Shown piece after piece: positions 46,658 through 58,408 of a DNA stretch of 64,000 nt. Source of the DNA: Escherichia coli (GTDB lineage Bacteria > Pseudomonadota > Gammaproteobacteria > Enterobacterales > Enterobacteriaceae). A program made the position numbers and the translations under genes. The stretch lies in NCBI RefSeq assembly GCF_003334335.1, contig NZ_QOWQ01000001.1; one strand, given 5' to 3'. How positions within the stretch are numbered: the first letter of the stretch is position 1; each line of letters starts with the position of its first letter. The notes below the pieces were generated by a model. It was not told the origin of the DNA. It saw nothing but the letters and a program-made list of their open reading frames with translations, and ran no database searches.

Positions 46658-47052
46658 GTGTTCCCCGCGCCAGCGGGGATAAACCGGCAAAAACCGGGCA
46701 ATCGCAAAAAGGCGTAATGTGTTCCCCGCGCCAGCGGGGATAAACCTGTGTTTGCGGCATTAACGCTCACCAGCATTTCGTGTTCCCCGCGCCAGCGGGG
46801 ATAAACCGACGTGGTCATGGGTGCTGCTGTTGCAGAGCCAGTGTTCCCCGCGCCAGCGGGGATAAACCGAGCAGATACACGGCTTTGTATTCCGTGCGCC
46901 CGTGTTCCCCGCGCCAGCGGGGATAAACCGAATAGCAATAGTCCATAGATTTGCGAAAACAGGTGTTCCCCGCGCCAGCGGGGATAAACCGGAGCCTGAC
47001 GAGACTACTGAGGCCGTTCTGTCGAGTTCCCCGCGCCAGCGGGGATAAACCA
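46658..47052 (+). CRISPR. Type I-E-style CRISPR array: 7 repeats of 29 bp, 6 spacers of 32 bp, AT-rich leader on the queE side
   Basis: Repeats GTGTTCCCCGCGCCAGCGGGGATAAACCG start at 46658, 46719, 46780, 46841, 46902, 46963 and 47024, strict 61-bp period; last repeat is the variant GAGTTCCCCGCGCCAGCGGGGATAAACCA; no cas genes in the window. Confidence 0.95.
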
Positions 47053-47522
47053 CCATATAACCCGTTATCTCTTTCTCAAGTTTTTATATTAGCAGTACTT
47101 GTAATAAGCAACATATCCACGTAACACCTCATGTTCAAAATAGTTCTCCATGCCAGAGAGGTTCACAATTATCGATACAAAAAATTAAATTTAATCAAAG
47201 TGTTATTTGTATGATTCTTAAATCGTTAAGAAATTTTAATCTATTATTTTTTTAATATTGAATTAATGCCTGTTAATTTTTTCTTTAGAATAACAGTATA
47301 TTTTTTAAGCTTGTTATTCATTGGTTAAGTAATAAATCTGGAAGTTTGTCTTTGTTTTGAGGCTAATGAGTGGTTTTACATAACCGCCTCTATACGCTGT
47401 TGATGAATAGTTCTTATGAATAAAGATATCCAGTTCATACTTTAAGTGAAAATTGATAAAGTGCGATTCGTATTGTCTTTTATTCTAAAGACATCGAGTG
47501 TAGTTAATATTCCTTGTAAAAA

Positions 47523-47645
47523 CAGGGATAAACCGAACTAGTTAAAGTTTTTATTATGTTCCCTGCATCAGCGGGGATAAACCGGACTTGTTATCATTTT
47601 TTAAGTTGTCGAACTTATGTTCCCCGCGTCAGCGGGGATAACCAT
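47523..47645 (+). CRISPR. Degenerate CRISPR remnant: 2 diverged repeats plus a truncated repeat
   Basis: cagggataaaccg (truncated), atgttccctgcatcagcggggataaaccg (47556-47584), 32-bp spacer gacttgttatcattttttaagttgtcgaactt, atgttccccgcgtcagcggggataaccat (47617-47645). Confidence 0.8.
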
Positions 47646-47690
47646 TCAGGTATGTTCAGGCCGGGCAGTTTCCCGCCCGGCCTTCCTCAC

Positions 47691-49169
47691 TTACGCATTC
47701 GACCAGCTCTGGATCGAATCCACATTCCCCAATTCCCCATGCATCACTTCATACGATTTTTTCAGGATCACATCAGTATGTTTGGTTAGGTCTTTGAAAA
47801 TGCCTTTATTCATCGCGTCGTAGCGTTTGGCATTGCTCTCAATCGGTATAAAGATATCTTTCACGCGAACCATGTTATCGACAGCCGTTGCGTAATCCGG
47901 GTATAGCCCCAGACCTACCGCTGTATTAATCGCTGCCCCCAGGCTTGCACAACCGTTAATGGCGTTACGTCGTGCCGGAAGGTTGAACACGTCGGCAAAA
48001 ATCTGCATAAACAGATCGCTGTTCGAACCGCCGCCAGTAATGATCACATGCTTCGCAAAGTGATTCATTTCATTACACATATTGTCGTAATTGTTCTTCA
48101 GCGTCAGCGCCACGCTTTCCAGTATCGAACGATATATCCATGCGTAATCCATGCTGGAATCAAAGCCGATCATAATCCCGCGTTTGTACGGTTCCCACGG
48201 ATTGGTCAGCCAGTCCAGCACCGTCATCAGACCATTACAGCCTGGCGGCACACAAGAAGCTTTTTTGTTGAGTAAATCTTCCGGTGAAAGATCCTGCGCC
48301 CTGGCATCCTGAATTAACGACTCGCCTAGCATGTCGCGCAGCCAGCTCACCGTCCACATGCCTTTGCGAATACCGTAACCTTCATACAGCAATGTTTGCG
48401 GAATAGAAGACATAATCGGCCAGTACGCTACTGGATCTTTCGGCAGTGCTTTGCCGTTCATCATCAATGCGATGTAAGTGCCAAGAGAAATTACCGCCGT
48501 TTCATCATCCAGTAATCCGGCCCCCAGAGCTTCTACCGGTTTATCACTGGTGGTACAAACAACCGGCAGTCCTGCCGGGAAATGTGTCGCCAGTGCGGCT
48601 TGTGGTGTGATATGTCCGAGGACGGTGCCAGGCATTTGCACATCAAACAGCATATGACGGGGGATATTAAACTTATCCATTACCGCAGCATCTTCGCTCC
48701 ATGCCCAGCTCTTATAATCCACCGGCCACTGACCAAAATAGTTGGCGATATTGTCTTTAAACTCGCCGGTTAAGCGATGCGTCAGATAACCCGAAAAAGA
48801 GGTGACATATGCCACGTCAGGGTTAGTGTGTTCGTAAGGGCGTGTAACGCGTGCATCCTGCCAGCTAATCAACGGCGCAGCAGGCGTGCCATCGGCTTTC
48901 AATAACGCACGGCAGCAACGGATGGATCCCAGACCAATACCGACAATATCTTCTTTATTCCCGGCAAACTGACTCATCAAATCGTGACCGGCAAAACATA
49001 ATGATGCCCATAAATCGTCGTCAGGATGTTCTGCAGTATCGGCATCTGGCGTGTGCATCGGCTGTAATAAGCCTTTGCCTTCGCAAACCACGTTACCTTC
49101 CAGATCGTACATCACCACTTTTGTGCTCTGACTTCCGCCATCAATCCCTATGATGTATTTTTTCGACAT
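47691..49169 (-). CDS. ygcE: FGGY-family carbohydrate kinase, substrate unknown
   Basis: 492 aa, MSKKYIIGIDGGSQSTKVVMYDLEGNVVCEG; FGGY N- and C-terminal domains. Confidence 0.85.
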   Translation of the reverse strand: MSKKYIIGIDGGSQSTKVVMYDLEGNVVCEGKGLLQPMHTPDADTAEHPDDDLWASLCFAGHDLMSQFAGNKEDIVGIGLGSIRCCRALLKADGTPAAPLISWQDARVTRPYEHTNPDVAYVTSFSGYLTHRLTGEFKDNIANYFGQWPVDYKSWAWSEDAAVMDKFNIPRHMLFDVQMPGTVLGHITPQAALATHFPAGLPVVCTTSDKPVEALGAGLLDDETAVISLGTYIALMMNGKALPKDPVAYWPIMSSIPQTLLYEGYGIRKGMWTVSWLRDMLGESLIQDARAQDLSPEDLLNKKASCVPPGCNGLMTVLDWLTNPWEPYKRGIMIGFDSSMDYAWIYRSILESVALTLKNNYDNMCNEMNHFAKHVIITGGGSNSDLFMQIFADVFNLPARRNAINGCASLGAAINTAVGLGLYPDYATAVDNMVRVKDIFIPIESNAKRYDAMNKGIFKDLTKHTDVILKKSYEVMHGELGNVDSIQSWSNA

Positions 49170-49195
49170 GATTTTTCTCCTGTAATTTTCCTGGC

Positions 49196-50473
49196 TTACT
49201 TGCTGCTAGCCATTGCGGGGGCGCTATCAGCAGTACGAATTTTTTGGAACAGCAAAAAGGTAAAGACAATCACCATGCCAAGCGCCGCCATGCCCATCAG
49301 CCACATATTGCGGTAGGCTTCTGCAGCGGGCAGGGTGTCTTGCCAGTGGCCGATAATTGGGTAAACGAAGACATCCGGCAGGAATCCAATCACCGAACAA
49401 ATACCTACCGTGGTGCCCATAATGTAAGACGGTGTTCTCGCTTCGCCAGGGCAGGCCCAGTACAGTCCGCGTGAGGCGTAACAGGTGAATCCCAGCAGTA
49501 AAATCAGGCCAATCCCCATCGCGACCGATTGCGGGTTAGAGTTCGTGACGAGCAGGGCAGTTAACGTCAGCAGGCCGAGTACGGAAAGGATTTGGATCAC
49601 GCGGGTAGGGGATTTCACTTTGCTGTAGGTGGTGATTATGCCGCCAAGTGGGCCGCACAGCGCGCGGAATATTTTGTTGATCACAATCCCCATGTAGCTC
49701 GCCGCCACCAGCGACATGCCATACATTTCGGTCAGATAGTTGGTGGAGTAACTCAGAATGGCGTAGATGGTGAAGACGCCAAAAATCACCATGCTGCAAT
49801 ACCAGGTGGTGCTGATACGCAAAACGGCCAGGATGTCGCTAAGCTGGAATGACTGTTTTTCTTCGTTATTGGCACTGCGCAGGTTGTTGTTATCGCTAAC
49901 AAAAAACCAGCACAGAATCCCCAACAAGATGTAAACCACACTATAGATGATAATGACCGTTTTCAGGCTGGTGCTGTCATCCGGTGCAAAGCGAGAAAAG
50001 ACCCACATGGTAAACACCGCCAGCGACATTACACCGACGCCGCGCAGCCCTTCCATCCAGCCCATAATTTTCCCTTGCTCGCTATGATCGCCAAGCAACG
50101 ATGCAGCTTTAATCGACACCGACCACAGCATTAAAATCGTCGTTATCGCAAAGGCGATCTGAATACAGAGCATTACCCACAGCGGTGGATACGTTGCCAT
50201 TAACAGACCCAGTAATCCGGTAATGATCATCGCGGAAGTAATCATTTTGCGGTGTGAAAATTTATCGGCAATAACGCCGCTGGGGGCATAAAGAATAATG
50301 GCCGCAATACCAAAGGTACTCATTATTAAACCTATCTCGGTATTGCTGAATCCCATAAATTTCGCCATGGGAATTTGATAAATATAACGTAAATAAGCCA
50401 GGTCGAAACTAACGCCGCCGCTAAAACTAATTATCGCGAGGGTTATCCAACGGCGATATGAGTTGTGTTGCAT
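49196..50473 (-). CDS. yqcE: MFS transporter, substrate unknown
   Basis: 425 aa, 12-TM-like hydrophobic profile, MQHNSYRRWITLAIISFSGGVSFDLAYLRY. Confidence 0.85.
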   Translation of the reverse strand: MQHNSYRRWITLAIISFSGGVSFDLAYLRYIYQIPMAKFMGFSNTEIGLIMSTFGIAAIILYAPSGVIADKFSHRKMITSAMIITGLLGLLMATYPPLWVMLCIQIAFAITTILMLWSVSIKAASLLGDHSEQGKIMGWMEGLRGVGVMSLAVFTMWVFSRFAPDDSTSLKTVIIIYSVVYILLGILCWFFVSDNNNLRSANNEEKQSFQLSDILAVLRISTTWYCSMVIFGVFTIYAILSYSTNYLTEMYGMSLVAASYMGIVINKIFRALCGPLGGIITTYSKVKSPTRVIQILSVLGLLTLTALLVTNSNPQSVAMGIGLILLLGFTCYASRGLYWACPGEARTPSYIMGTTVGICSVIGFLPDVFVYPIIGHWQDTLPAAEAYRNMWLMGMAALGMVIVFTFLLFQKIRTADSAPAMASSK

Positions 50474-50497
50474 ATCGTATTCCCATTTGTAATAGAC

Positions 50498-50545
50498 AAA
50501 AAAAAGAGAAAAGTAAGCCGCCCTTTCAGGTGGATTACTTTTCTC
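50498..50545 (-). terminator. Intrinsic-terminator-like hairpin in the 5' leader of yqcE (candidate attenuator)
   Basis: On the minus strand: gagaaaagtaa [18-nt loop] ttacttttctc followed by tttttttt, ending about 25 nt upstream of the yqcE ATG. Confidence 0.55.
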
Positions 50546-50651
50546 AGGTCTCTAGTAATTGAAATAATAAATAACATGGAAAGCAGAGGTGTTGTGTGAG
50601 AGTAATCACGCTTCTGCTTTTTAAAATTATTTGACAATACGAATATCACAC

Positions 50652-50667
50652 TGTGATTACGATCACA
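50652..50667. promoter_or_regulatory. Candidate CRP binding site shared by divergent yqcE and ygcW promoters
   Basis: TGTGATTACGATCACA, perfect match to the TGTGA-N6-TCACA core; a ttgaca hexamer lies at 50631-50636. Confidence 0.55.
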
Positions 50668-50722
50668 TTAGCAGTTATGCCCTTATGCTAAAAATTATCT
50701 CCAGTTACCAGAGATAATGAGA

Positions 50723-50767
50723 AAGGTAACTTCCCTCTCGCGGGGGAAGTTACCTTTCTTTTTTTTT
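50723..50767 (+). terminator. Intrinsic-terminator-like hairpin in the 5' leader of ygcW (candidate attenuator)
   Basis: aaggtaacttccc tctcgcgg gggaagttacctt followed by tctttttttttt; 13-bp stem ending about 25 nt upstream of the ygcW ATG at 50792; upstream agttacc (50703-50709) could form an alternative pairing. Confidence 0.6.
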
Positions 50768-50791
50768 GCCTTACGGAAATTGGAGCTAACT

Positions 50792-51577
50792 ATGTCAATC
50801 GAATCTCTCAATGCGTTCTCAATGGATTTTTTCTCCCTGAAAGGTAAAACCGCAATTGTTACCGGTGGGAATAGCGGTTTAGGCCAGGCATTTGCCATGG
50901 CGTTGGCCAAAGCTGGCGCAAATATCTTTATTCCTAGTTTCGTCAAAGATAACGGCGAAACAAAGGAAATGATTGAAAAACAGGGTGTTGAGGTGGACTT
51001 CATGCAGGTGGATATCACCGCAGAAGGCGCGCCGCAGAAGATTATCGCTGCTTGCTGTGAGCGTTTCGGTACAGTTGATATTCTGGTTAACAATGCCGGT
51101 ATTTGTAAGCTGAATAAGGTGCTGGACTTCGGTCGTGCCGACTGGGATCCGATGATTGATGTGAACCTGACCGCCGCATTCGAGTTAAGCTATGAAGCTG
51201 CAAAAATTATGATCCCGCAGAAAAGCGGCAAAATTATTAATATCTGTTCATTGTTCTCTTACTTAGGTGGACAATGGTCACCTGCATATTCTGCCACTAA
51301 ACATGCTCTTGCCGGGTTCACCAAAGCTTATTGTGATGAACTAGGTCAATATAATATTCAGGTAAATGGTATCGCCCCTGGCTATTATGCAACAGATATT
51401 ACGCTGGCGACACGCAGTAATCCAGAAACCAATCAGCGCGTTCTTGATCATATTCCGGCAAACCGTTGGGGCGATACTCAGGATTTAATGGGCGCAGCCG
51501 TATTCCTCGCAAGTCCGGCATCGAATTATGTCAACGGGCATTTATTAGTGGTTGATGGCGGTTATTTAGTGCGCTAA
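50792..51577 (+). CDS. ygcW: Short-chain dehydrogenase/reductase (KduD-like), substrate unknown
   Basis: ORF 50717..51577; recognised start MSIESLNAFSMDFFSLKGKTAIVTGGNSGLGQA at 50792 (261 aa); Rossmann TGGNSGLG. Confidence 0.85.
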   Translation: MSIESLNAFSMDFFSLKGKTAIVTGGNSGLGQAFAMALAKAGANIFIPSFVKDNGETKEMIEKQGVEVDFMQVDITAEGAPQKIIAACCERFGTVDILVNNAGICKLNKVLDFGRADWDPMIDVNLTAAFELSYEAAKIMIPQKSGKIINICSLFSYLGGQWSPAYSATKHALAGFTKAYCDELGQYNIQVNGIAPGYYATDITLATRSNPETNQRVLDHIPANRWGDTQDLMGAAVFLASPASNYVNGHLLVVDGGYLVR

Positions 51578-51646
51578 CCCATAACGGTGGTTTCTGTTTT
51601 CTCTTATTAATGATTATTCCATTTTTATTATCAGGAAGGAATTACT

Positions 51647-53101
51647 ATGTCTTTATCTCGCGCAGCGATTGTCGACCAGCTAAAGGAAATTGTTGGTGCA
51701 GATCGCGTAATTACCGATGAAACAGTATTAAAGAAAAACAGTATTGACCGTTTTCGTAAATTTCCGGATATTCATGGCATTTATACTTTGCCGATTCCGG
51801 CAGCGATCGTAAAACTCGGTTCCACAGAGCAAGTATCCCGTGTGCTGAATTTTATGAATGCGCACAAAATTAACGGTGTGCCGCGTACCGGTGCTTCCGC
51901 CACCGAAGGTGGGCTGGAAACTGTTGTAGAAAACTCGGTGGTGCTCGACGGCTCCGCCATGAATCAAATCATTAATATTGATATTGAGAATATGCAGGCG
52001 ACGGCGCAATGTGGTGTTCCGCTGGAAGTGCTGGAAAACGCGTTGCGTGAAAAAGGTTACACCACGGGGCATTCTCCGCAGTCAAAGCCGCTGGCGCAGA
52101 TGGGCGGCCTGGTAGCAACCCGAAGTATCGGGCAGTTCTCCACACTCTACGGCGCAATCGAAGATATGGTCGTTGGTCTGGAAGCAGTATTGGCTGATGG
52201 CACCGTCACACGCATTAAAAACGTGCCACGCCGCGCGGCTGGCCCGGACATTCGTCACATCATCATCGGCAACGAAGGTGCATTGTGCTATATCACTGAA
52301 GTAACAGTGAAAATCTTTAAATTCACCCCGGAAAACAACCTCTTCTACGGCTATATCCTGGAAGACATGAAAACCGGCTTCAACATCCTGCGTGAAATCA
52401 TGGTGGAAGGGTATCGTCCGTCAATCGCTCGTTTGTATGACGCTGAAGATGGCACCCAACACTTCACCCATTTTGCCGACGGAAAATGCGTGCTGATCTT
52501 TATGGCTGAAGGTAACCCTCGCATTGCGAAGGTGACGGGCGAAGGGATTGCGGAAATCGTTGCCCGCTACCCGCAATGCCAGCGCGTGGACAGCAAGCTG
52601 ATCGAAACCTGGTTTAACAACCTGAACTGGGGACCGGATAAAGTGGCTGCCGAACGTGTGCAGATCCTCAAAACCGGCAACATGGGCTTTACCACCGAAG
52701 TATCCGGCTGCTGGAGCTGCATCCACGAAATCTACGAAAGCGTTATTAACCGTATTCGTACTGAGTTCCCGCACGCCGACGACATCACCATGCTGGGCGG
52801 TCATTCCTCTCATAGCTATCAGAACGGCACCAACATGTACTTCGTCTACGATTACAACGTCGTTGACTGTAAGCCGGAAGAGGAAATCGACAAGTACCAC
52901 AATCCGCTCAACAAGATCATCTGTGAAGAAACCATTCGCCTCGGCGGTTCGATGGTGCACCACCACGGTATCGGTAAACATCGCGTTCACTGGAGCAAAC
53001 TGGAACACGGCAGCGCGTGGGCGTTGCTGGAAGGGCTGAAAAAGCAGTTCGATCCTAATGGCATTATGAATACGGGTACTATCTATCCGATTGAAAAATA
53101 A
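51647..53101 (+). CDS. ygcU: FAD-linked oxidoreductase (GlcD / alkyl-DHAP-synthase-like), substrate unknown
   Basis: 484 aa, MSLSRAAIVDQLKEIVGADRVITDETVLKKNSIDRFRKF; FAD-binding PCMH-type domain. Confidence 0.85.
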   Translation: MSLSRAAIVDQLKEIVGADRVITDETVLKKNSIDRFRKFPDIHGIYTLPIPAAIVKLGSTEQVSRVLNFMNAHKINGVPRTGASATEGGLETVVENSVVLDGSAMNQIINIDIENMQATAQCGVPLEVLENALREKGYTTGHSPQSKPLAQMGGLVATRSIGQFSTLYGAIEDMVVGLEAVLADGTVTRIKNVPRRAAGPDIRHIIIGNEGALCYITEVTVKIFKFTPENNLFYGYILEDMKTGFNILREIMVEGYRPSIARLYDAEDGTQHFTHFADGKCVLIFMAEGNPRIAKVTGEGIAEIVARYPQCQRVDSKLIETWFNNLNWGPDKVAAERVQILKTGNMGFTTEVSGCWSCIHEIYESVINRIRTEFPHADDITMLGGHSSHSYQNGTNMYFVYDYNVVDCKPEEEIDKYHNPLNKIICEETIRLGGSMVHHHGIGKHRVHWSKLEHGSAWALLEGLKKQFDPNGIMNTGTIYPIEK

Positions 53102-53194
53102 TGTGTCAGGCAGCGTTCCGCGATGACGGGGCGTTGCCTTTTCGGCTTCTCAGGCGAGAAGCCGTTCTTATTACCGGACAATGAAGGGGTAAAG

Positions 53195-54532
53195 ATGAAC
53201 ACTTCACCGGTGCGAATGGATGATTTACCGCTTAACCGTTTTCACTGCCGCATTGCTGCGCTCACTTTCGGCGCACACCTGACCGACGGTTATGTTCTCG
53301 GCGTCATTGGTTACGCCATTATTCAGCTTACGCCCGCCATGCAACTGACGCCGTTTATGGCGGGAATGATCGGCGGCTCGGCGCTCCTTGGTTTGTTCCT
53401 TGGCAGCCTGGTTCTTGGGTGGATCTCCGACCATATTGGTCGGCAAAAAATCTTCACCTTCAGCTTTTTGCTGATTACGCTTGCTTCGTTTTTACAATTT
53501 TTTGCCACCACGCCAGAGCATCTTATTGGACTGCGCATTTTGATTGGCATTGGTCTGGGAGGCGATTATTCAGTAGGTCACACCTTGCTGGCTGAATTTT
53601 CCCCGCGCCGCCATCGCGGTATTTTGCTGGGCGCATTCAGCGTGGTGTGGACCGTAGGCTATGTGCTGGCAAGTATTGCCGGACATCACTTTATTTCCGA
53701 AAACCCGGAGGCCTGGCGCTGGCTACTGGCATCGGCAGCTCTGCCCGCGTTGTTGATTACGTTATTACGCTGGGGAACGCCAGAATCACCACGCTGGCTA
53801 CTGCGCCAGGGGCGTTTTGCAGAAGCTCACGCTATCGTGCATCGCTATTTTGGTCCCCATGTTTTACTGGGCGATGAAGTGGTAACGGCGACCCATAAAC
53901 ACATCAAAACCTTGTTCTCTTCGCGTTACTGGCGGCGCACGGCGTTTAACAGCGTCTTCTTTGTCTGCCTCGTAATCCCATGGTTTGTGATTTATACCTG
54001 GCTGCCAACTATCGCCCAGACTATTGGTCTGGAAGATGCGCTGACTGCCAGCCTGATGCTTAATGCGTTGTTAATTGTGGGCGCGCTGCTGGGATTAGTT
54101 CTGACGCACCTGCTGGCACATCGCAAATTTTTGCTGGGAAGTTTTTTGCTGCTGGCGGCAACGCTGGTAGTCATGGCCTGTTTGCCTTCCGGCAGTTCAT
54201 TAACGCTGCTGCTTTTTGTTCTCTTCAGCACCACCATTTCGGCAGTCAGTAATCTGGTGGGCATTTTGCCTGCGGAAAGTTTTCCTACTGACATTCGCTC
54301 GCTGGGCGTCGGTTTTGCCACTGCCATGAGTCGACTTGGCGCGGCGGTAAGTACTGGCCTGCTGCCGTGGGTGCTGGCGCAGTGGGGAATGCAAGTCACC
54401 TTATTGCTCCTGGCGACAGTGTTGTTGGTTGGTTTTGTTGTGACCTGGCTATGGGCACCAGAAACTAAAGCCCTCCCGCTGGTGGCGGCGGGAAATGTAG
54501 GAGGTGCGAATGAACATTCTGTTAGCGTTTAA
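53195..54532 (+). CDS. ygcS: MFS sugar-porter-like transporter, substrate unknown
   Basis: ORF 53123..54532; probable start MNTSPVRMDDLPLNRFHCRIAALTFGAHLTDGY at 53195 (445 aa). Confidence 0.8.
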   Translation: MNTSPVRMDDLPLNRFHCRIAALTFGAHLTDGYVLGVIGYAIIQLTPAMQLTPFMAGMIGGSALLGLFLGSLVLGWISDHIGRQKIFTFSFLLITLASFLQFFATTPEHLIGLRILIGIGLGGDYSVGHTLLAEFSPRRHRGILLGAFSVVWTVGYVLASIAGHHFISENPEAWRWLLASAALPALLITLLRWGTPESPRWLLRQGRFAEAHAIVHRYFGPHVLLGDEVVTATHKHIKTLFSSRYWRRTAFNSVFFVCLVIPWFVIYTWLPTIAQTIGLEDALTASLMLNALLIVGALLGLVLTHLLAHRKFLLGSFLLLAATLVVMACLPSGSSLTLLLFVLFSTTISAVSNLVGILPAESFPTDIRSLGVGFATAMSRLGAAVSTGLLPWVLAQWGMQVTLLLLATVLLVGFVVTWLWAPETKALPLVAAGNVGGANEHSVSV

Positions 54533-55289
54533 AGCCGAACCGGATGCCGGAATGCTGGCGGAAAAAGAGTGGCAGGCGGCGGCTCAGGGTAAAAGCGGAC
54601 CGGATATTTCGCTACTGCGAAGTTTACTCGGTGCTGATGAACAGGCCGCTGCCGCGCTGCTGTTGGCGCAGAGAAAAAACGGTACGCCGATGTCTTTAAC
54701 CGCGTTGAGCATGGGGGATGAACGGGCATTGCACTGGCTGCGCTATCTCATGGCTCTTGGGTTTGAGGAAGCTGTATTGCTGGAGACGGCGGCAGATCTG
54801 CGCTTTGCGCCGGAATTTGTCGCTCGCCATATTGCCGAATGGCAGCATCAGAATCCGCTGGATCTGATAATTACCGGCTGCCAAAGCAGCGAAGGGCAGA
54901 ATGGGCAAACGCCATTTTTGCTGGCGGAAATGCTGGGCTGGCCCTGCTTCACCCAGGTGGAGCGTTTCACTCTCGACGCGCTGTTTATCACCCTCGAACA
55001 GCGTACTGAACATGGGTTGCGTTGTTGCCGGGTTCGCTTGCCTGCGGTGATTGCCGTGCGTCAGTGCGGTGAAGTGGCCTTGCCAGTACCGGGAATGCGC
55101 CAGCGAATGGCTGCGGGGAAAGCAGAAATTATCCGTAAAACTGTTGCTGCCGAAATGCCAGCGATGCAGTGTCTGCAACTGGCAAGAGCAGAGCAACGAC
55201 GCGGAGCGACGCTGATTGATGGGCAAACGGTAGCAGAAAAAGCTCAAAAGCTATGGCAGGACTATTTACGCCAAAGGATGCAGCCATGA
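54510..55289 (+). CDS. ygcR: Electron transfer flavoprotein beta-subunit-like (FixA-like)
   Basis: ORF 54504..55289; start MNILLAFKAEPDAGMLAEKEWQ (259 aa); overlaps ygcQ. Confidence 0.8.
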   Translation: MNILLAFKAEPDAGMLAEKEWQAAAQGKSGPDISLLRSLLGADEQAAAALLLAQRKNGTPMSLTALSMGDERALHWLRYLMALGFEEAVLLETAADLRFAPEFVARHIAEWQHQNPLDLIITGCQSSEGQNGQTPFLLAEMLGWPCFTQVERFTLDALFITLEQRTEHGLRCCRVRLPAVIAVRQCGEVALPVPGMRQRMAAGKAEIIRKTVAAEMPAMQCLQLARAEQRRGATLIDGQTVAEKAQKLWQDYLRQRMQP

Positions 55290-56146
55290 ATATCGCAATT
55301 GTGACAATAAATCAGGAGAATGCCGCAATAGCAAGCTGGCTGGCGGCGCAGGATTTCAGCGGTTGTACCCTGGCGCACTGGCAGATTGAACCTCAGCCTG
55401 TAGTGGCGGAACAGGTGCTGGATGCGTTGGTGGAACAGTGGCAGCGAACGCCTGCGGACGTTGTTCTCTTTCCGCCGGGAACGTTTGGCGATGAACTGTC
55501 GACCCGGCTGGCCTGGCGTTTACATGGTGCAAGCATCTGCCAGGTGACTTCGTTAGATATTCCAACCGTAAGCGTGCGCAAATCCCACTGGGGAAATGCG
55601 CTAACGGCGACGCTGCAAACAGAAAAACGCCCGCTATGCCTTTCCCTGGCGCGTCAGGCGGGAGCAGCGAAAAACGCCACGTTGCCCTCTGGAATGCAAC
55701 AACTGAACATTGTCCCGGGTGCGCTTCCGGACTGGCTGGTTAGCACAGAGGATCTGAAAAATGTTACCCGCGACCCATTAGCTGAGGCCAGACGGGTGCT
55801 GGTGGTGGGGCAGGGCGGAGAGGCAGATAACCAGGAAATCGCTATGCTGGCAGAAAAGCTGGGAGCTGAAGTGGGCTACAGTCGGGCGCGAGTGATGAAC
55901 GGTGGCGTTGATGCTGAAAAAGTGATTGGTATTTCCGGACATCTGCTGGCACCTGAGGTGTGTATTGTTGTTGGCGCTTCTGGCGCAGCAGCGTTAATGG
56001 CGGGCGTACGCAATAGCAAGTTTGTGGTGGCGATTAATCATGACGCCAGCGCTGCGGTATTTTCACAGGCAGATGTTGGCGTGGTTGATGACTGGAAAGT
56101 GGTGCTGGAGGCACTGGTGACAAACATTCACGCAGATTGCCAATAA
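55286..56146 (+). CDS. ygcQ: Electron transfer flavoprotein alpha-subunit-like (FixB-like)
   Basis: ORF 55253..56146; start MNIAIVTINQENAAIASWLAAQ (286 aa); ETF-alpha C-terminal FAD-binding region (VGYSRARVMNGGVDAEKVIGISGHLLAPEVCIVVGASGAAALMAGV). Confidence 0.8.
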   Translation: MNIAIVTINQENAAIASWLAAQDFSGCTLAHWQIEPQPVVAEQVLDALVEQWQRTPADVVLFPPGTFGDELSTRLAWRLHGASICQVTSLDIPTVSVRKSHWGNALTATLQTEKRPLCLSLARQAGAAKNATLPSGMQQLNIVPGALPDWLVSTEDLKNVTRDPLAEARRVLVVGQGGEADNQEIAMLAEKLGAEVGYSRARVMNGGVDAEKVIGISGHLLAPEVCIVVGASGAAALMAGVRNSKFVVAINHDASAAVFSQADVGVVDDWKVVLEALVTNIHADCQ

Positions 56147-56152
56147 CGTGTT

Positions 56153-56260
56153 GCCGGATGATCCTGCCTACGGTTCTGGCCTGGGGACTTGTAGGCCTGA
56201 TAAGACGCGTCAAGCGTCGCATCAGGCGCTGAATGTCGGATGTGGCGTGCGGCCTACAAA
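56153..56260. repeat. REP element cluster between ygcQ and ygcP
   Basis: gccggatgatcctgcctacgg, ttgtaggcctgataagacgcgtcaagcgtcgcatcaggcg, gtcggatgtggcgtgcggcctacaaa. Confidence 0.75.
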
Positions 56261-56293
56261 TCAAACCAAATTCAATTGGTTACGATTATCCCG

Positions 56294-56869
56294 TCAAAGT
56301 AATTTTTTCGCTAACGTCCAGACCCCGGTATTCGTGGTGGAAAGCGCCACGACACCCGCGTTAATCGCATTACGCGCATCTTCTTCATCGCACACCAGCC
56401 CACCGGCAATCAGCGGTTGGCGGATTTTCTCTGTCACCCAGCCCAGCACTTTGGGCATACAGCCTGGCAGGATCTCAATACAATCCGGATTCGATTGCGC
56501 AACTTGCTTATCAATGTTGTGAAACGAAATTGAATCAACAATAAACAGGCGATGAATACAGAAAAAACCTTCCGCTCTTGCCGCTTTCAACATTGAGGCT
56601 TTGGTACTGATAATGCCGTCCGCCTCGGTCACCAGTTTCAAAAACTGAATAACGACTTCTTTATTTGACGCGCCTTCCAGCAAATCAACATGAATAAAAG
56701 CATATTTCCCGGCGTTCTTAATCTTTTTAACGATATTACTGATGGTGCAGATATTGCCGTACAACACGGAAATAAATTGGCATTCAGAATCGATTGCCAG
56801 TTGCAGGCTGGCATTATCTTTAACGGCAGCAATCACCGGATTCTGGCGGAGCAGGTGTAAGAGGGGCAT
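56294..56869 (-). CDS. ygcP: GlpP-family (glycerol-3-phosphate-responsive) antiterminator-like protein
   Basis: 191 aa, MPLLHLLRQNPVIAAVKDNASLQLAIDSECQFISVLYGNICTISNIVKKIKNAGKYAFIHVDLLEG, G3P_antiterm-type fold. Confidence 0.8.
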   Translation of the reverse strand: MPLLHLLRQNPVIAAVKDNASLQLAIDSECQFISVLYGNICTISNIVKKIKNAGKYAFIHVDLLEGASNKEVVIQFLKLVTEADGIISTKASMLKAARAEGFFCIHRLFIVDSISFHNIDKQVAQSNPDCIEILPGCMPKVLGWVTEKIRQPLIAGGLVCDEEDARNAINAGVVALSTTNTGVWTLAKKLL

Positions 56870-56885
56870 AAATTATCCTTATTAT

Positions 56886-57146
56886 TTATCCAAAGCGGTA
56901 GGTGATGCCGAATCCGGAAGGCGGATAGCGCCACTGTTGTAGTGTTGATTCGTCGCACAGCAAACGGCAGGTGCCACACTCCAGGCAACTGCGATAGTCA
57001 ATACGTAAGTTACCTTCCGGTGTGAGCGAAAAAAGACCTGCCGGACAGGCGTTAATCAACCGTTCTGCCGTCTGGCGCTCAACGGAGTCAGCCGGAACAA
57101 TGTGCGGCGCATCAGCAACGCGCCAGAGATTACGGGCTACAGACAT
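56886..57146 (-). CDS. ygcO: Ferredoxin-like protein (FixX-like)
   Basis: ORF 56886..57182; probable start MSVARNLWRVADAPHIVPADSVERQ (86 aa); cysteine cluster CLECGTCRLLC; overlaps ygcN stop. Confidence 0.75.
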   Translation of the reverse strand: MSVARNLWRVADAPHIVPADSVERQTAERLINACPAGLFSLTPEGNLRIDYRSCLECGTCRLLCDESTLQQWRYPPSGFGITYRFG

Positions 57147-58408
57147 CGCAGACTCCTGATAACATCGCCCGCCAGATGCCACAGGCCGTGACGACGTAAA
57201 TGATGCCAGAATAACTGGCGCAGCGGTGGAACAGGTTTATCACCCTGATCCCATAAATCGCGGGAAATATCCTGCATTAACGCAGGCCACGTACGGTACC
57301 ATCCCGGGCGTTGCAAAAGCGCCGGAACATGCTGATAACGCTGTAGAACATCCCACAGCAGGCTGCGCTCTACGTTGTGATGATAAAGCGGAAACAGATT
57401 TTGCGGCTCGCGGTGCTGGCAGGCGCTTATCAGCGTTTGTGCCGCCGCCTGCGCGCCAGTCAGCGCCATATCCATGCCGCGCACGGAAATTCCGGTATTG
57501 ACGCAACTGCGCAACGCATCGCCCACCAGCAGCCAGCCGTTACCGGCGTATTGCACCGGCATACTGTGCAAGCCACCTTCTGGCACCAGATGCGCACCAT
57601 ACTCCAGTGATTCCGTGTTTTTGATAAGCGGGCGCACTGCCGGATGCGCTTTAAAGCGAGTCAGCAGCTCGCTTGCCGGAACACGACTTTGCGTAAGGGA
57701 AGAGAGCGGGCAAACAATCCCTAACGAGAGCGTTTGTTGATTAGTATAAAGAAATGCGCCGCCGGGTAAGTCATCACAGATCCTGCCGCTGAACAGCAAC
57801 GCTGCGCCTTCGTTATTCTCCAGATGAAAACGTTCTTCAATAGCGGATGTTTCCAGCGACAGCACTTCTTTGATCCCCAACGCCATCGCTTCGCCAGCAG
57901 GACGAGCCACTAACCCGTGACGTTCAGCCAGGACGCTGTTGGCACCTTCTGCCAGCACCACATAACGGGCGCGGAGAATATCGTCACCACAAATAACGCC
58001 ACAGACTCTGCCGTTTTCTTCATACAGTGCATCCACCGTCGCTCCGGGGATGCATTCGACACCTTCTTTTTCGGCTTCGGCAACCAGCCACGGATCGAAT
58101 CGTGCACGTAATACACTCCAGGATTCACCGCCGGGCTGTAAGCTGGAAAACGTCGTTACGCCATCGGGCGTTAACAGGGAAAGGCTTTCGTGAGTGATGC
58201 GTCGTTCAAGAGGCGCGGTCAGATGAAATTGCGGGAGGAGTTCCGCGAGTGCATGGGTATATAACCGCCCGCCGGAAAGATTTTTGCTGCCGGGGATTTC
58301 AGCGCGTTCCAGTAACAAAACGGATAAACCCGCTCGCGCGCAGCGTAACGCGCAAGCGGTGCCTGCAATACCGGCACCAATAATAATAATGTCGCAGTCG
58401 TCTTCCAT
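57137..58408 (-). CDS. ygcN: FAD-dependent oxidoreductase, ETF-quinone-oxidoreductase-like (FixC-like)
   Basis: ORF 57137..58438; start MEDDCDIIIIGAGIAGTACALRCARAGLSVLLLER (423 aa), dinucleotide-binding GxGxxG. Confidence 0.85.
   Translation of the reverse strand: MEDDCDIIIIGAGIAGTACALRCARAGLSVLLLERAEIPGSKNLSGGRLYTHALAELLPQFHLTAPLERRITHESLSLLTPDGVTTFSSLQPGGESWSVLRARFDPWLVAEAEKEGVECIPGATVDALYEENGRVCGVICGDDILRARYVVLAEGANSVLAERHGLVARPAGEAMALGIKEVLSLETSAIEERFHLENNEGAALLFSGRICDDLPGGAFLYTNQQTLSLGIVCPLSSLTQSRVPASELLTRFKAHPAVRPLIKNTESLEYGAHLVPEGGLHSMPVQYAGNGWLLVGDALRSCVNTGISVRGMDMALTGAQAAAQTLISACQHREPQNLFPLYHHNVERSLLWDVLQRYQHVPALLQRPGWYRTWPALMQDISRDLWDQGDKPVPPLRQLFWHHLRRHGLWHLAGDVIRSLRCL

Follow-up and report, generated by a model that had tools for sequence, protein, structure and literature searches.

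What do ten adjacent genes that still carry "y" names and no function do for Escherichia coli K-12, and what turns them on? Both questions are raised by the interval from ygcE to ygcN (positions 47691-58408) of the stretch analyzed here, 64,000 nucleotides (nt) of E. coli contig NZ_QOWQ01000001.1, hereafter the window. The interval holds ten intact open reading frames (ORFs) that are 100% identical to those of annotated complete E. coli chromosomes. An initial annotation, made from the sequence alone, had described it as a self-consistent but functionally unassigned catabolic cluster, and that description held: all enzymes of the cluster scored below their NCBIfam equivalog cut-offs, and a full-text literature search by gene names, by family combinations, and by betaine-lipid catabolism found no functional study of the cluster and no assignment. 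In the literature, these genes came up in lists from promoter SELEX, in a prediction of Crp sites, in MazF proteomics, and in engineering with YgcS for nicotinamide mononucleotide (NMN).

Here, comparative sequence analyses point to two previously unannotated leader RNA switches that appear to turn on a conserved kinase, a dehydrogenase, and a flavoenzyme resembling an ether-lipid synthase. On balance, we think it probable that the locus works as a catabolic regulon under double control, in which CRP and YgcP-dependent leaders govern chemistry of the type performed by alkyl-dihydroxyacetone phosphate (alkyl-DHAP) synthase (ADPS). The parts of this reading differ in standing. The regulatory model, with CRP and with YgcP antitermination at the two leader switches, is very probable on strong comparative evidence; the ADPS-type catabolic chemistry is a tentative assignment that may well prove wrong.

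Divergent leader RNAs with two mutually exclusive folds

Overlapping stops and starts (23 nt for ygcS/ygcR, 4 nt for ygcR/ygcQ, and 10 nt for ygcN/ygcO) suggest three transcription units: yqcE-ygcE on the minus strand, ygcW-U-S-R-Q on the plus strand, and ygcN-O-P on the minus strand. The first two diverge from a 318-bp intergenic region between yqcE and ygcW, in which each strand carries a strong terminator hairpin with a U-run, 25 to 30 nt ahead of the start codon. The same motif precedes both terminators, giving one leader RNA of ~70 nt for each divergent operon. The features of this region are as follows.

50696-50767, plus strand: leader RNA element A, the ygcW leader (covariance model 73.5 bits, E=1.6e-17)
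50498-50567, minus strand: leader RNA element B, the yqcE leader (covariance model 77.2 bits, E=1.5e-18)
50652-50667, no strand assigned: CRP-like site 1, TGTGATTACGATCACA, consensus match in both half-sites, proximal to the ygcW promoter
50595-50610, no strand assigned: CRP-like site 2, TGTGAGAGTAATCACG, proximal to the yqcE promoter

The consensus of the element, rGUUAC-yAGAG-N3-6-GAGAAAAGUAAC-UUCC...GGAAG-n-GCUUUUCUC-U7-9, can form either of two exclusive folds: a short hairpin, P1 (GUUACy/rGUAAC), whose loop contains AGAG and GAG, or a long terminator whose 5' arm is made up of the 3' part of the P1 loop and the 3' arm of P1, the latter hairpin sharing 5 to 7 nt with that arm. For leader A, P1 pairs 50703-50709 with 50725-50731 around the loop AGAGAUAAUGAGAAA, and the alternative 19-bp terminator (50719-50760) is followed by a U-run (U9), the element ending 25 nt before the ygcW ATG; this was the top terminator-like site of the region (fold z=-6.6). 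For leader B, P1 pairs 50559-50554 with 50539-50534 around the loop AGAGACCUGAGAAA, and the alternative terminator (15/17-bp stem) pairs 50545-50529 with 50522-50506, followed by a U-run (U8) at 50505-50498. When only the first 36 to 40 nt of the leaders were folded, the minimum-energy structure was P1 (-6.7 and -1.4 kcal/mol); the complete E. coli leaders adopted the terminator fold (-35 and -22 kcal/mol).

Both folds have been maintained in other bacteria. AGAG and GAG in the loop were invariant across 47 diverse copies. Within an alignment of 37 sequences, P1 was 93.8% paired with compensatory changes at 5 of its 7 pairs (slid controls, 17 to 56%), and the terminator was 88% paired with compensatory changes at 10 of its 17 pairs; overall, slid controls gave only 17 to 63%. 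Columns common to both helices covaried with both of their partners, as C-G for U-A in P1 and as G-C for A-U in the terminator. We built a covariance model on P1; its only strong matches in the 64-kb window were the two leaders, and at E<1e-5 it matched 115 times in 1.5 Mb of related loci, with P1 94.3% paired there. Even at E<=1, no Rfam 15 family matched either leader or the copies from three distant loci, and the leader positions are without annotation in RefSeq E. coli genomes.

The position of the element relative to genes was equally consistent. When 57 matches from 54 loci were placed, each lay 20 to 440 nt upstream of the nearest detected cluster gene, with two exceptions (L072 and L074) in which the distance was about 1 to 3 kb because the element there heads an operon for an OpuA-type ABC transporter and MttB, the first genes of which fell outside the reference set. 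The genes behind the element encoded the dehydrogenase, YgcU, a BCCT transporter, or a YqcE-type MFS transporter. Orthologs of yqcE in enterobacterial loci had the element 21 to 38 nt upstream; orthologous clusters of distant phyla had it upstream of the dehydrogenase gene. The terminator sits between promoter and first structural gene in the E. coli leaders and likewise in the 54 placed loci. The covariance model found no third element ahead of ygcN, ygcO, or ygcP in the window, which makes sense for the unit encoding the regulator.

Two further observations concern the leaders themselves. An ATG within the P1 loop of leader A, at 50717, is in frame with ygcW and adds 25 codons to it (50717-50791) in mechanical ORF lists; it is probably unused. 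An N-terminally extended YgcW starting there was rejected, as this start lacks a Shine-Dalgarno sequence and conservation outside the enterics, and RefSeq places the start at 50792. A Limnobaculum eriocheiris locus (L034, 3084-3163) has one palindromic terminator that matched the model on both strands (36 and 32 bits); it shows no clear P1 arm and may serve both divergent operons.

Association of the leaders with a GlpP-family regulator

The initial annotation had taken ygcP to encode a GlpP-like regulator, and the assignment was borne out: PF04309 (G3P_antiterm) matched YgcP over positions 1 to 173 of 173 (E=1.6e-62), and the solved GlpP structure 3kts matched it as well (E=1.2e-27). The presence of this gene and of the RNA element went together. 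Our comparison set comprised 80 genome loci, including 40 non-enterobacterial ones, and the element was found in all 20 non-enterobacterial loci with a ygcP homolog (19 by covariance model, one by pattern only) versus 2 of the 20 without (Fisher p=3e-9), both of the latter being short contigs. Loci without YgcP often had a sigma-54 activator instead.

In Bacillus subtilis, GlpP with glycerol-3-phosphate (G3P) activates glpD, glpFK, and glpTQ by disrupting leader terminators (PMC9604022). The glpD 5' untranslated region (UTR; sequence from PMC9604022, Table S4) has a weak hairpin, GGUC/GACC, with the loop UGAGAUGAGGAGA, and the 3' half of this hairpin is the 5' arm of a terminator for which we computed a fold of -47 kcal/mol. 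By eye, 11 of 16 positions were identical between the glpD loop and the ygc-type loop. The two systems are alike in having a PF04309 regulator and a weak hairpin with a GAG-rich loop that overlaps a strong terminator. They differ in that the ygc RNA has a different sequence and belongs to no Rfam family, that its targets are the genes for a dehydrogenase, an ADPS-like enzyme, an FGGY kinase, and transporters rather than glp genes, that its effector is probably different, and that the ygc version is joined to class-II-like CRP promoters in a Gram-negative host. We call the ygc-type element a putative new sequence class of the same design as the glpD leader.

Another explanation is that the cluster is an alternative route for glycerol or G3P and that YgcP senses G3P as does B. 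subtilis GlpP. The full-length G3P_antiterm domain and a leader architecture like that of glpD are what such a route would have. The ygc-type RNA is nonetheless a distinct sequence class, YgcE reached only 99 bits against GlpK (cut-off 590), and the cluster is accompanied by no glycerol facilitator or GlpD gene, its transporters being of BCCT, OpuA, or MFS type; we consider a glycerol or G3P route very unlikely.

CRP-like sites and the proposed mode of control

Among 31 enterobacterial loci, with intergenic regions of 138 to 274 bp, each CRP-like site lay 42 to 46 nt from the AGAG of its own leader (43 to 44 nt for site 1 and leader A). Firmicute loci had no such sites. Since the site centers fall ~50 nt upstream of AGAG, we infer that, with a site center at -41.5 as in class II, transcription would begin with the first P1-arm base, near 50701 on the plus strand and 50561 on the minus strand. 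A PhyloScan study of 2007 ranked yqcE/ygcW second among its genome-wide Crp predictions (PMC1794230).

We propose that two divergent, class-II-like CRP-dependent promoters start right at the two ~70-nt leaders. Left alone, each leader would fold into its strong intrinsic terminator and stop transcription before yqcE-ygcE and before ygcW-U-S-R-Q. YgcP, supplied by the separate ygcN-O-P unit and loaded with a phosphorylated pathway intermediate, would bind and stabilize the weak hairpin P1 (loop AGAG...GAGAAA); because P1 sequesters the 5' arm of the terminator, RNA polymerase would then read through, in the manner of B. subtilis GlpP at the glpD leader. For a protein of the GlpP family, an intermediate that is phosphorylated and resembles G3P would be a natural effector.

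The hairpins might instead be ordinary terminators or insulators in a locus that is cryptic or decaying in E. coli. Such decay would suit the fast divergence of the electron-transfer flavoprotein (ETF) and FixCX-like genes, the absence of the region from about 7% of genomes, and the lack of a published phenotype. Pseudogenization, which the initial annotation had raised as a ground for doubt, was not seen, however: the ten ORFs are all intact, 5062 of 5426 complete E. coli genomes covered at least 80% of the cluster query, and the leader region was at least 95% identical in 5048. Moreover, terminators lying between promoter and gene, with a covarying alternative hairpin that recurs across phyla and is tied to ygcP, are not expected for insulators. 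That the locus is cryptic or decaying is most improbable.

Gene content, borders, and conserved core

NCBIfam and Pfam scans were consistent with the RefSeq classes of all ten products, and the gene list of the initial annotation stood as drawn. The cluster reads as follows.

47691-49169, minus strand: ygcE, FGGY-family kinase, second gene of the yqcE-ygcE operon
49196-50473, minus strand: yqcE, MFS transporter, first gene behind leader B
50792-51577, plus strand: ygcW, KduD-like short-chain dehydrogenase (SDR)
51647-53101, plus strand: ygcU, VAO-family FAD enzyme (FAD_binding_4/FAD-oxidase_C) resembling alkyl-DHAP synthase; FAD-binding oxidoreductase in RefSeq
53123-54532, plus strand: ygcS, MFS transporter
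54510-55289, plus strand: ygcR, ETF beta-like subunit
55286-56146, plus strand: ygcQ, ETF alpha-like subunit of a distinct subfamily
about 56150-56267, no strand assigned: REP/BIME-like repeats (repetitive extragenic palindromic/bacterial interspersed mosaic element) between convergent ygcQ and ygcP
56294-56869, minus strand: ygcP, predicted GlpP-family RNA-binding antiterminator; "glycerol-3-phosphate responsive antiterminator" in RefSeq
56886-57146, minus strand: ygcO, FixX-like ferredoxin
57137-58408, minus strand: ygcN, FixC/ETF-QO-like flavoprotein; FAD-dependent oxidoreductase in RefSeq

The neighborhood was only partly as first described. A type I-E CRISPR array (46658-47052) does adjoin the locus, to the left of ygcE. 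The cluster had also been said to be bounded by REP elements, and here the sequence disagrees: when the border sequences were examined, neither carried a REP element, and the only REP/BIME-like stretch of the cluster is the internal one between ygcQ and ygcP, which gave a weak match to Rfam naRNA4 (34 bits, below the gathering score), the sole Rfam match of the region. Between the array and ygcE lie three degenerate CRISPR repeats without regular spacers (47520-47650), and a GC-rich hairpin (47652-47690) immediately follows the ygcE stop codon.

Across the 80 loci, the constant partners of YgcU were the YgcW dehydrogenase (63 to 97% identical, and 63 to 86% between phyla) and the FGGY kinase, the latter present in 31 of the 40 non-enteric loci. 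Orthologs of YgcU with 63 to 84% identity were found in Enterobacterales, Photobacterium, SAR324, Desulfobacterales, Sporomusa, Clostridia, Halobacillus/Virgibacillus, and Saccharopolyspora, and the triad of dehydrogenase, YgcU, and kinase spans Enterobacterales, Clostridia, Bacilli, Actinomycetes, and Desulfobacterales. Nearly all enteric loci, and about half of the others, also had a GlpP-like gene. Judged by this distribution, the conserved core of the cluster is YgcW, YgcU, and YgcE, usually with YgcP, and not the electron-transfer module. The kinases show a pattern of their own: E. coli YgcE was 53 to 58% identical to the kinases of Firmicute clusters versus 42 to 49% to those of Serratia, Pantoea, Erwinia, and Limnobaculum (L031-L045), a difference suggesting either two lineages of kinases or replacement of the gene within the cluster.

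An ADPS-like active site in YgcU

The solved structures closest to YgcU were those of AGPS (another name for ADPS), 4bby and 2uuu. In hmmsearch, AGPS 4bby (3.8e-56) ranked ahead of glycolate oxidase (1.2e-36) and LctD (3.9e-26), and the score against the NCBIfam GlcD model was 142 bits (cut-off 568). A Foldseek search with an AlphaFold model of YgcU (pLDDT 66, from a 12-sequence alignment), which served only for ranking folds, placed mammalian AGPS first (TM score 0.72 to 0.74). YgcU residues R262, Y398, and H438-440 align with R419, Y578, and H615-617 of AGPS, and with R352 and Y508 of the Dictyostelium enzyme, and were invariant in 12 orthologs from several phyla; PDB entries for AGPS mutants are named Arg419His and Tyr578Phe. 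The HHH position corresponds to the metal-binding E-H of D-lactate dehydrogenase and glycolate oxidase, and the cap domain of YgcU aligns with that of ADPS, not with that of D-lactate dehydrogenase. ADPS proceeds via a C1 carbanion and a flavin-N5 adduct with no net redox change, and its catalytic residues have been described (PMC3509576). A "glycerol-ether" substrate, one of those first suggested for the cluster, fits an enzyme whose nearest relative is alkyl-DHAP synthase and whose catalytic residues are kept.

YgcU is not itself an ADPS by these alignments. At 484 amino acids, it can be aligned only from about residue 181 of the 658 of AGPS and so is without the first ~150 to 180 residues of that protein, and the N-terminal/gating domain and long hydrophobic C16 tunnel of ADPS were not found in it. 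Because the N-terminal ~180 residues of AGPS are absent, YgcU is best described as an ADPS-like enzyme for a non-lipid substrate.

YgcW scored 350.6 bits against the KduD model NF005390 (cut-off 369), with KduD 4z9y as its best solved relative, and is by this measure a close relative of KduD but not an equivalog. KduD oxidizes a secondary alcohol (-CHOH-) beside a terminal CH2OH. The kinase YgcE is a divergent member of the FGGY family, with XylB (142 bits, cut-off 380) as its best NCBIfam match and the AI-2 kinase LsrK as its best solved relative. In eukaryotic ether-lipid metabolism, kinase, dehydrogenase, and ADPS activities interconvert alkylglycerol, alkyl-G3P, and alkyl-DHAP. The kinase, dehydrogenase, and ADPS-like enzyme of the ygc cluster resemble the eukaryotic trio of alkylglycerol kinase, the SDR acyl/alkyl-DHAP reductase, and AGPS, and of these AGPS is the closest in the PDB to YgcU, which keeps its Arg, Tyr, and HHH. 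The ygc context, unlike the eukaryotic one, is catabolic and directed at soluble substrates, as its transporters and CRP-like sites indicate, and YgcU has a dedicated ETF partner, whereas ADPS needs none.

We suggest, tentatively, the following sequence of reactions. A transported compound X-CH2-CHOH-CH2OH would be oxidized at C2 by YgcW and phosphorylated by YgcE, in either order, to an X-substituted dihydroxyacetone phosphate (X-CH2-CO-CH2-OP). YgcU, by ADPS-type chemistry with a C1 carbanion and a flavin-N5 adduct, would then break the C1-X bond to give DHAP and X.

In a picture nearer that of the initial annotation, YgcU could also be a conventional dehydrogenase of the GlcD/LctD type, acting on a D-2-hydroxy acid, a sugar acid, or a polyol phosphate and passing electrons via YgcRQ and YgcN/O to quinone, with the kinase and the dehydrogenase performing ordinary sugar-acid or polyol steps. 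The VAO/GlcD superfamily is indeed that of YgcU, D-lactate dehydrogenases were the next-best fold matches, a dedicated ETF lies beside YgcU in most loci, anaerobes have a second GlcD-like oxidase with an LctBC-like ETF next door, and YqcE is weakly similar to acid-sugar transporters. Set against this are the HHH in place of E-H, the retained Arg and Tyr of ADPS, the ADPS-like cap domain, the absence of an ETF from many orthologous clusters, and non-enteric transporters of betaine rather than acid-sugar type. We regard a GlcD/LctD-type YgcU as somewhat unlikely.

ETF and FixCX-like genes as an accessory module

The initial annotation had put a FixABCX-like electron-transfer module in its title and had described the set as paralogous in organization to fixABCX and ydiQRST. 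Gene content supports the paralogy, as families for ETF beta, ETF alpha, FixC-like, and FixX-like proteins were all present by NCBIfam, with YgcN at 359 bits for FixC and 380 bits for PRK10015 and YgcO at 82 bits for FixX. The organization does not. Rather than forming a single collinear operon of four genes, as in FixABCX/YdiQRST, the ygc genes are split between two convergent units, with ygcR-ygcQ on the plus strand, ygcN-ygcO on the minus strand, and ygcP and the REP-like repeats between them. YgcQ also departs from the canonical ETF alpha motif SGxxQ[H/F]: like the YgcU-adjacent ETF alphas of other phyla, it has SGAAA[L/F].

Nor is the module a constant part of the cluster. Most anaerobes and the E. 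coli-type enterics have genes for ETF beta and alpha behind that for YgcU; these genes are absent from the clusters of Pantoea, Erwinia, some Serratia, Halobacillus, Virgibacillus, Saccharopolyspora, and SAR324; FixC- and FixX-like genes were limited to Enterobacterales versions of the cluster. Among enterobacterial genera, the four electron-transfer proteins (YgcR, YgcQ, YgcO, and YgcN) diverge several-fold faster than the core: relative to Citrobacter/Klebsiella, YgcU and YgcW were 93 and 96% identical and YgcQ and YgcR 61 and 72%, and relative to Pluralibacter, YgcU was 91% identical and YgcQ and YgcO 44 and 43%. Because of this faster divergence and the absence from many orthologous clusters, the module that had been taken to define the locus is an accessory part of it.

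As an accessory module of anaerobic and facultative lineages, the YgcRQ ETF and the FixCX-like YgcNO would link the flavin of YgcU to the quinone pool. Possible roles for an ETF beside YgcU are oxidative bond cleavage and re-oxidation of the flavin where oxygen is lacking; either would fit the occurrence of clusters without an ETF in aerobic lineages. A comparison can be drawn to LctBCD of Acetobacterium woodii (7qh2), in which a VAO-family FAD enzyme is likewise encoded beside ETF beta and alpha (LctD-YgcU E=3e-22). The active-site motifs of YgcU, however, are of ADPS rather than LctD type, and the LctBC-like ETF with a ferredoxin domain goes with a second oxidase (in Photobacterium and Firmicute loci), not with YgcU. 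This second oxidase, a GlcD-like FAD enzyme of ~490 to 510 amino acids, always came after the YgcU-linked ETF in anaerobes (L003, L004, and L047-L067) and was absent in enterics; in L004, L060, L067, and L084, it had its own ETF pair with an N-terminal ferredoxin domain.

Transporters and candidate substrates

YqcE gave only weak family matches, to D-galactonate and PgtP transporter families. Overexpression of YgcS, which is ~26% identical to the niacin transporter NiaP, raised the yield of NMN from nicotinamide (PMC8601175), an indirect clue to what YgcS transports. Outside the enterics, the transporters of the cluster were BCCT or OpuA-type ABC systems, several of them directly behind the RNA element. 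In a Syntrophomonadaceae/Bacillota group of loci (L072, 6997-14035; also L069, L070, and L074), the same element preceded an operon for a methyltransferase of the non-Pyl MttB family, which also encodes a PanB-like protein, an OpuA-type ABC transporter, and a protein of the proline racemase family; corrinoid proteins were encoded nearby in other loci. Because of the BCCT and OpuA-type transporters and the non-Pyl MttB in these loci, X outside Enterobacterales probably carries a quaternary-ammonium (betaine-type) group, and the presence of the non-Pyl MttB gene downstream of the element in L072 speaks for a released product that is not trimethylamine but still a quaternary amine.

Glycerophosphocholine (GPC), carnitine, choline, trimethylammonio-propanediol, and the head groups of diacylglyceryl-trimethylhomoserine (DGTS) were weighed as substrates, and sequence alone selects none of them. 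One candidate, though a rather improbable one, is the head group, a glyceryl ether, of DGTS and similar betaine lipids; the literature search on betaine-lipid catabolism found no support for a DGTS-type substrate.

Several points weigh against the doubly controlled regulon with ADPS-type chemistry that we favor. An nhmmer search with a profile of the ygc-type element found no match in the B. subtilis glpD UTR, and sequence homology of the RNA targets is therefore not claimed; the effector of YgcP could, moreover, be plain G3P. The Foldseek margin was modest (AGPS 1e-28 versus D-lactate dehydrogenases 1e-25, with a model of pLDDT 66). ADPS is non-redox, yet YgcU has a dedicated ETF in most lineages, which argues for net electron transfer and for a reaction that may differ from that of ADPS. 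Finally, because the E. coli cluster uses MFS rather than betaine-type transporters, the enteric substrate may differ from that of the other lineages.

Implications

For the ten genes of this locus, the leaders offer a direct experimental handle on the substrate. A fusion to the ygcW leader could serve as a ready reporter that should respond only to the true inducer and could be used to screen compound libraries and natural extracts. If the regulatory model is true, GlpP-type RNA antitermination operates in E. coli and is joined there to CRP control; we know of no earlier report of GlpP-type antitermination in this species, and our literature search returned none.

The implications of YgcU extend beyond E. 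coli, since orthologs 63 to 84% identical to it occur in gut enterics, marine sulfate reducers, halophilic bacilli, and actinomycetes alike. YgcU may run flavin-N5 chemistry in catabolism, which, if true, would be a new use of a rare mechanism. The broadest version of the proposal, a widespread bacterial pathway in which an ADPS-like flavoenzyme works in the catabolic direction to release DHAP from glyceryl-linked quaternary amines, for instance the head group of deacylated DGTS, under a new class of GlpP-family riboregulator, is in its entirety unlikely. Such a pathway could bear on the turnover of quaternary amines in both marine and gut settings.

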